A stretch of 7,590 bases of DNA from a virus. Lineage: Duplodnaviria > Heunggongvirae > Uroviricota > Caudoviricetes. The notes under the pieces are model-generated. The model did not search any database, had not been told where the DNA came from, and was given only the letters and a program-made list of their open reading frames with translations. Shown here piece by piece: positions 6,625 to 6,654 of the stretch (its first letter is position 1; every line of letters starts with the position of its first letter). Location: the IMG/VR virus record IMGVR_UViG_2778261559_000019. One strand, written 5' to 3'. The translations under genes and the position numbers were made by a program.

Positions 6625-6654
6625 TTGAAGTTCCGGACGGCGCCGGAATAGAAT
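6625..6654 (+). promoter_or_regulatory. putative promoter with a palindrome in the spacer, upstream of the 6737 gene
   Basis: -35 TTGAAG (6625-6630), 18-bp spacer containing TTCCGG-acggcg-CCGGAA (6631-6648), -10 TAGAAT (6649-6654). Confidence 0.4.

Follow-up and report, generated by a model that had tools for sequence, protein, structure and literature searches.

The stretch of DNA analyzed here (7,590 nt; hereafter the window) represents in its full length the early-right region of a lambdoid prophage of E. coli. Prophages that match it completely or almost completely are the "PPompW" prophages of EHEC O157 and those of O103, O145, O26, and O111 strains. The gene of a DicA-like repressor is followed by genes for a Cro-like and a YdaT-like protein, by O-/P-like replication genes, a DUF1627 gene, and then a fimbrial pseudogene. 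Downstream of the adhesin gene paa there is a complete hok/sok locus, which consists of the sok sequence recognized by Rfam (6214-6363), the hokD coding sequence, and a terminator. Just past this terminator, which directly adjoins it on the upstream side, lies a promoter-like element, 80 bp before a rem gene. Behind rem follow an ORF of 92 codons and the beginning of a DUF968/ydfU gene, with rusA and Q as the next genes in full genomes. The first-pass annotation had proposed a promoter with a palindrome in its spacer at 6625-6654 and had pointed to similar CCGG-core sequences at 7365-7380, 4958-4973, and 6056-6061; all of these sequences were confirmed at their positions. The features considered in the following are:

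927-1334, minus strand: gene of the DicA-like repressor, 63% identical to DicA
4958-4973, no strand assigned: TCCGGCaagaGCCGGA, in the frame of the fimbrial pseudogene (..YPARAGK..)
5267-6025: adhesin gene paa, 600 bp upstream of the rem promoter
6056-6061, no strand assigned: lone TTCCGG half-site after the paa terminator
6585-6620, plus strand: intrinsic terminator of the hok mRNA from the terminator scan, with the stem AACCCGcttcggCGGGTT at 6585-6602 and then a T-run
6625-6630, plus strand: -35 hexamer TTGAAG, 4/6 matches to TTGACA
6631-6648, no strand assigned: 18-bp spacer TTCCGGacggcgCCGGAA, an inverted repeat TTCCGG-acggcg-CCGGAA that we judged to be incidental
6649-6654, plus strand: -10 hexamer TAGAAT, 5/6 matches to TATAAT including A at position 2 and T at position 6, then an invariant C at 6655
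6660-6662, plus strand: predicted transcription start, 6-8 nt past the -10 hexamer according to sigma-70 geometry
6663-6736, plus strand: conserved rem leader CTTAAGTAGCGCGCAGGGAGAAGAGGGATGG, then a hairpin of CCCC (6695-6698) and GGGG (6704-6707)
6690-6737, plus strand: 15-codon upstream ORF MDPEQGSAIYLEGFC with a strong Shine-Dalgarno sequence, its TGA stop overlapping the rem ATG (TGATG)
6734-6994, plus strand: rem homologue, 72% identical to K-12 Rem
7365-7380, no strand assigned: 16-bp perfect palindrome GTTCCGGTACCGGAAC inside the DUF968/ydfU frame, codons V-P-V-P-E (GTT CCG GTA CCG GAA)

Some further sequence features of the window were recorded. The repressor-cro intergenic region contains inverted repeats of the type CTTAG-N6-CTAAG (TTAGgtaattCTAA at 1336-1349 and CCTTAGgaaaatCTAAGG at 1385-1402), and CCTAAG is present twice more, near 811 and 847 (805-855). 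The repeats at 1336-1402, together with the CCTAAG sequences near 811 and 847, are probably the operators of the DicA-like repressor. A canonical LexA-type box, TGCTGTTAATAAAAACAGTA (CTGT-N8-ACAG), is found at 2474-2493 within the O-like replication gene and reached the median score of known SOS boxes with an ad hoc matrix. It is surrounded by ACCCAAA iterons (at 2436, 2525, 2569, 2591, 2611, and 2621), which probably mark a replication origin. A perfect palindrome of 24 bp, CCGATATGGGAATTCCCATATCGG, occupies positions 6145-6168, downstream of the paa terminator and upstream of the sok/hok locus. It is far more striking than TTCCGG-N6-CCGGAA and the other CCGG palindromes, and its core is found again in 15 retrieved loci, where the flanks differ. 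Within the DUF968/ydfU frame a 19-bp tandem repeat CTGCCGTCCGGCATCGTCC is present in 3.4 copies with 100% identity (7476-7539). The best genome matches are 38 bp shorter, which corresponds to two 19-bp units, and thus the copy number varies and shifts the frame.

A conserved, probable promoter element in front of rem

Sigma-70 promoters start transcription 6-8 nt after their -10 hexamer. The element at 6625-6654 offers TAGAAT as -10 hexamer and, within the 16-18 bp upstream range considered for a -35 hexamer, TTGAAG at 18 bp. With an 18-bp spacer and a 9/12 match of the two hexamers it is a mediocre promoter, and the window contains 10 hexamer pairs with this match and spacing compared to 8.9 expected in shuffled sequences. 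No minus-strand promoter was listed by the promoter scan. The four sequences quoted in the first-pass annotation are real, yet none of them goes beyond chance when taken alone.

For a comparison with related loci, a viral contig collection was scanned with a rem-leader pattern located downstream of, and excluding, the -10 hexamer. All loci with enough flanking sequence were counted, which amounted to 149 loci from E. coli-type prophages that do not represent independent samples. TAGAAT followed by C was found in 149 of the 149 loci, 21-22 nt upstream of GCGCGCAGGGA. When the window is aligned with the more distant rem loci of Rac-type phages, TAGAAT marks the exact point at which similarity sets in. 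A stretch of 6-7 nt that varies from class to class separates TAGAATC from CTT, and conservation across classes resumes at this CTT (6663, approximately +3). The 30 nt upstream of the -10 hexamer fall into nine classes, most of which are unrelated with only 20-40% identity to each other; three upstream classes with TTGAGG reach 50-67% mutual identity. TTG is located exactly 16 bp upstream of TAGAAT in seven of the nine classes (as TTGAGG, TTGATT, TTGATA, or TTGCCT), and the TTG counts at other offsets are 0-2. For the other two classes the best -35 match (4/6) is found at 18 bp, namely TTGAAG in the Qin/PPompW class of the window (about 115 loci) and TTAACT in one small class. Within the Qin-type class, 14 of the 15 haplotypes carry TTGAAG and one carries TTGAGC.

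An invariant -10 island, an independently supplied -35 hexamer at promoter spacing, and conservation from about +3 onward make up the signature of a working sigma-70 promoter. Judged from these alignments, positions 6625-6654 are most likely the promoter of rem, which we named P_rem. The suggestion of a promoter-like element is therefore supported by the invariance of TAGAAT in 149 loci and by TTGnnn (TTAACT in one class) 16 or 18 bp upstream, and it is the comparison with related loci, and not the window itself, that lifts the promoter above chance.

The Qin prophage of K-12 has the same order of hokD terminator, TTGAAG-18 bp-TAGAAT, leader, and rem, with about 95% DNA identity over the intergenic stretch. 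It differs in the spacer (TTCTGGACGGTGCCGGAA, an imperfect palindrome) and in the upstream ORF, which comprises 3 codons. Homology of the window to other hok loci stops in the T-run of the terminator, near 6611. In strain CFSAN061761 the hok terminator and its T-run are also found behind an unrelated helix-turn-helix gene, where they are again followed by P_rem. The hok terminator seems to serve as an exchange joint between modules.

TAGAAT and the leader precede three small proteins, which are Rem (83-87 aa), a 57-aa type sharing the first 24 residues, and a 55-aa type starting with MNDKELI; even before this third type the first ~50 nt of the leader are kept. In the leader hairpin the stem hardly varies, whereas both the sequence and the length of the loop do, and no compensatory change was seen. 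As the upstream ORF is fused in frame to rem in CFSAN061761 and has its short form in K-12, neither its length nor its frame is conserved, and a conserved leader peptide was dismissed. Two GGA motifs around the start of the upstream ORF resemble CsrA sites, which is a speculation. Pfam contains no family for Rem or the next ORF, and their PHROG families have no known function. A protein-guided search across species genomes yielded no rem relatives. In a full-length relative no strong intrinsic terminator was found on the plus strand from P_rem to Q.

Transcript data were consulted for K-12 and EDL933 and yielded no mapped start for rem. The K-12 SMRT-Cappable-seq operon table lists a relB-relE-hokD-rem transcript from the relB start at 1645901 (PMC6131387 supplement) and contains no start near the position expected for P_rem, 1644973-1644976 (minus strand, NC_000913.3). 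The dataset is limited to 2347 operons and depends on full-length reads. It would therefore overlook a start that is weak or repressed, so that the missing start is weak evidence. In the EDL933 Cappable-seq tables no matching sequence was present. The SMRT-Cappable-seq table suggests that the rem promoter of K-12 is not strong in laboratory media and may be weak or silent there, and a quiet promoter fits a gene that must stay silent in the lysogen. In K-12 there is also readthrough from the relBE promoter past the hokD terminator into rem, which could link relBE induction to antirepressor production.

The spacer palindrome and other CCGG palindromes

In the Qin-type class the 30-bp promoter occurs in 15 haplotypes, only one of which (10 of about 115 loci) has the perfect arms TTCCGG/CCGGAA. 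The palindrome of the window haplotype is perfect through two C/T differences from the common form. The dominant haplotype (TTCTGG..CCGGAA, 61 loci) is present in K-12 and in the functional phages HannyBb and PhiR42_1. A further mismatch in the dyad is found in 5 of the 15 haplotypes; the other left arms are TTTTGG, TTTTAG, TTATGG, ATCTGG, and TTTTTG. Nowhere in the promoter is variation greater than in the left arm and the centre, with the right arm CCGGAA being nearly constant, and the eight other promoter classes are devoid of such a dyad.

As a DNA hairpin the palindrome is no more stable than shuffled sequences (z = -0.8). The three commonest haplotypes fold as plus-strand RNA at -10.1, -7.9, and -6.0 kcal/mol, and three others do not fold. 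No pair had changed on both sides compared to its commonest form, and the covariation score was equalled by 470 of 500 shuffles. Rfam searches at gathering and permissive thresholds yielded no family for the spacer or the leader, the sole match being sok further upstream. A structured RNA element was rejected on these grounds, with no compensatory change, covariation at the level of shuffles, and no Rfam match. The same applies to an intrinsic terminator at 6631-6648, since there is no U-run (the plus strand continues with TAGAATCAAAAA, the minus strand with CTTCAAACGCG) and the terminator scan did not report one.

Loci with the perfect haplotype carry repressors from 3 different clusters, and those with the K-12 haplotype carry repressors from 5. 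As the spacer haplotypes mix freely with the repressor alleles, they do not constitute an immunity-specific operator; moreover, the prophage's own operators appear to be the CTTAG-N6-CTAAG repeats at 1336-1402 and not CCGG sequences. The role of an operator or hairpin element that had been considered for the spacer palindrome did not hold up, because the palindrome is restricted to a minority haplotype, is lost in others, and lacks covariation. From the haplotype comparison we conclude that it reflects a chance state of a drifting spacer, with no sign of a functional site. It is conceivable that the palindrome acts as a lineage-specific operator.

The other CCGG palindromes lead to a similar picture. 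At the position of the palindrome at 7365-7380, the relatives have TTCTGG in 52 loci and GTTCTGGTGCCTGAGC in 29. GTTCTGGTGCCTGAGC encodes the same Val-Pro-Glu tail by synonymous codons, whereby the palindrome is abolished, and according to these codon changes the 7365-7380 palindrome is not a site. The sequence at 4958-4973 does not vary among the 8 loci in which it is present, which makes its conservation uninformative either way. An operator family with both arms conserved was discarded, as the left arm varies within the class, the palindrome is absent elsewhere, and the one at 7365-7380 is lost by synonymous changes.

TTCCGG and CCGGAA together occur 11 times in the window compared to 3.9 times in dinucleotide shuffles. 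With 150 kb of E. coli K-12 as reference, the half-site proved to be at background frequency (1.45 per kb in the window vs. 1.02 per kb in K-12, P = 0.16), and thus the excess over the shuffles is not specific for the window. It may reflect the codon usage of E. coli, in which CCG-GAA encodes Pro-Glu. Three TCCGG-N(0-10)-CCGGA inverted repeats in the window correspond to a nominal P of 5e-4 at the K-12 rate. However, in 22 of 36 K-12 windows of the same size some 5-mer forms at least three such repeats, and in the window itself two other 5-mers form four. As such multi-repeat 5-mers are common in K-12, the recurrence is a post hoc pattern. The gaps of the three palindromes are 6, 2, and 4 bp if 6-mer arms are considered (6, 2, and 6 bp for 5-mer arms), and neither the window nor 150 kb of K-12 contains a second copy of the dyad with the same spacing. 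An operator family of one regulator was thus rejected based on the unequal spacing, the background rate of the half-site, and the frequency of families with at least three repeats in K-12. The doubt about a single operator family that was already expressed in the first-pass annotation was right, as the gaps differ and the half-site occurs at the background rate, but the notion of recurring CCGG-core half-sites as functional sites finds no support and the recurrence is put down to chance, with the other two palindromes being coding and not conserved as DNA. We regard the remaining CCGG palindromes as unrelated side effects of the coding sequence.

Comparison with known antirepressor systems

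The Rem protein of K-12 has been shown experimentally to be an antirepressor of DicA, and it relieves the DicA repression of dicBp 165-fold (Ragunathan et al., 2023, PMC10448788). In that work rem was expressed from foreign promoters, its own promoter was not described, and the condition that induces Rem was stated to be unknown (PMC10448788). In the Gifsy loci of Salmonella, replication genes are followed by a terminator-like palindrome, a LexA-box promoter, dinI, a small antirepressor gene, and irsA (Lemire et al., 2011, PMC3121763). The window resembles the dinI-gftA/gfoA region of Gifsy in position and logic, whereby the Gifsy antirepressor acts on a short, non-cleavable repressor. The layout matches as well, with hok terminator, P_rem, and rem here and with irsA, ybcO, and Q following in Rac-type phages. 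A search of the phage collection revealed no similarity to Gifsy phages at the DNA level. In contrast to Gifsy, no LexA box of at least 4 bits was detected between -150 and +120 in the window (6501-6800) or in most class representatives with an ad hoc matrix derived from SOS boxes. Two class representatives contain weak matches of about 4 bits compared to a training minimum of 11.7. A LexA-regulated antirepressor promoter of the Gifsy gftA, 186 tum, or N15 antC type was thus discarded, since this matrix detected no CTGT-N8-ACAG box overlapping the promoter.

Two other types of control were considered. Promoters of the MerR type (merT, copA, zntA, soxS) carry a dyad operator within an over-long spacer of 19-20 bp. 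The window shares with them a longer-than-optimal spacer filled by a centred dyad, which can serve as a lead only, but its spacer has 18 bp and the dyad is not conserved. As the spacer has 18 bp and no MerR-family gene was annotated in 19 kb of the prophage, a MerR-type promoter was rejected. In P22 the promoter Pant of the antirepressor gene is provided with Arc/Mnt operators, and in P1 ant is controlled by the C4 antisense RNA and coupled to an upstream ORF (icd). Common to these systems is an antirepressor gene that is silenced by dedicated promoter or leader control, and the icd-ant coupling of P1 resembles the 6690-6737 ORF of the window with its stop overlapping the rem ATG. However, no arc- or mnt-like genes and no antisense promoter were found in the window, and length and frame of the upstream ORF are not conserved.

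Interpretation of the element and its rivals

Taken together, we assign a probability of roughly 0.7 to the reading that 6625-6654 is P_rem, the sigma-70 promoter of the DicA antirepressor gene, that the spacer palindrome is the sequence of one haplotype without a conserved role, and that the other CCGG palindromes are by-products of coding sequence. Sigma-70 RNA polymerase would start at about 6660-6662 on P_rem and would thereby restart transcription just downstream of the hok terminator. The resulting RNA is predicted to comprise the conserved ~75-nt leader followed by rem. As no strong terminator was found, the transcript possibly extends through DUF968, rusA, and Q. Since Rem would inactivate the DicA-type repressor of this prophage, P_rem would be a point at which derepression of the prophage is controlled. 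Because constant production of an antirepressor would do harm, P_rem must be subject to some kind of control.

Such control might be exerted at the palindrome itself, if it were an operator at which a dimeric regulator from the host or the prophage blocks RNA polymerase or realigns the long spacer in a MerR-like manner and thus gates Rem. The dyad fills the spacer exactly and symmetrically, but it is perfect in only 10 of about 115 class loci, and although the commonest haplotypes keep 5/6 symmetry, five haplotypes lose further symmetry. The nearly invariant right arm is much better kept than the left one, which could reflect function; left arm and centre, however, are the most variable part of the promoter. 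While the 18-bp spacer of this class is unusual compared to 16 bp in seven others, MerR spacers have 19-20 bp and no regulator of this type was annotated. Moreover, the dyad is missing in the eight other promoter classes found in front of this leader and gene, it is not linked to the repressor allele, and no second copy of the same spacing exists in 150 kb of K-12 or elsewhere in the window. Regulation as such is expected at an antirepressor promoter, the signal that induces Rem is not known (PMC10448788), and the Gifsy promoters, which are analogous, contain a LexA operator (PMC3121763). All in all, we regard an operator in the spacer as rather improbable.

It is somewhat easier to imagine, but still unlikely, that no promoter operates here in vivo and that rem owes its expression entirely to upstream promoters whose transcripts read through the hok terminator, with TAGAATC being kept as an RNA or protein site or as a recombination joint of modules. 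This would agree with the relB-relE-hokD-rem transcript and the missing start before rem in the K-12 SMRT-Cappable-seq data, but with 2347 operons and full-length reads these data would miss a weak or repressed start. The promoter match in a single sequence is at chance level and module boundaries cluster at this site; a recombination joint, however, leaves unexplained why a 7-nt island is invariant with variable flanks on both sides, and why TTG lies exactly 16 bp away in seven upstream classes. Readthrough into rem, which exists in K-12, would also be the precondition for the inverted repeat acting as a plus-strand RNA hairpin, for example as a stabilizer or processing site. The three commonest haplotypes do fold on the plus strand, where G-U pairs and one double change from C-G to U-A maintain the pairing, and fold poorly on the minus strand, but all of the changes are transitions, the kind of mutation that occurs most often, the covariation does not exceed that of shuffles, and three haplotypes lose the fold. 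As the hairpin is in addition not followed by a U-run and absent from the other promoter classes, such a role appears very unlikely to us.

P_rem is most likely an ordinary promoter of a known kind, and it becomes more meaningful since the gene behind it is an antirepressor gene. The conserved parts are the -10 hexamer and the leader, whereas the -35 hexamer and spacer are swapped between phages. As a bolder and correspondingly doubtful idea, P_rem and its leader might form a portable, LexA-independent cassette for small antirepressors of DicA/RacR-type repressors, in which the class-specific -35 and spacer sequences, including TTCCGG-N6-CCGGAA in EHEC prophages, are operators for different signals. 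If this were true, these sequences would connect prophage derepression to different signals. P_rem would mark the place where the missing signal for Rem induction has to act, and the conserved -10 hexamer and leader are a better lead to this signal than the palindrome. Prophages of this kind are found very frequently in E. coli, also in EHEC strains with virulence cargo, and in the present case the adhesin gene paa lies nearby, 600 bp upstream.
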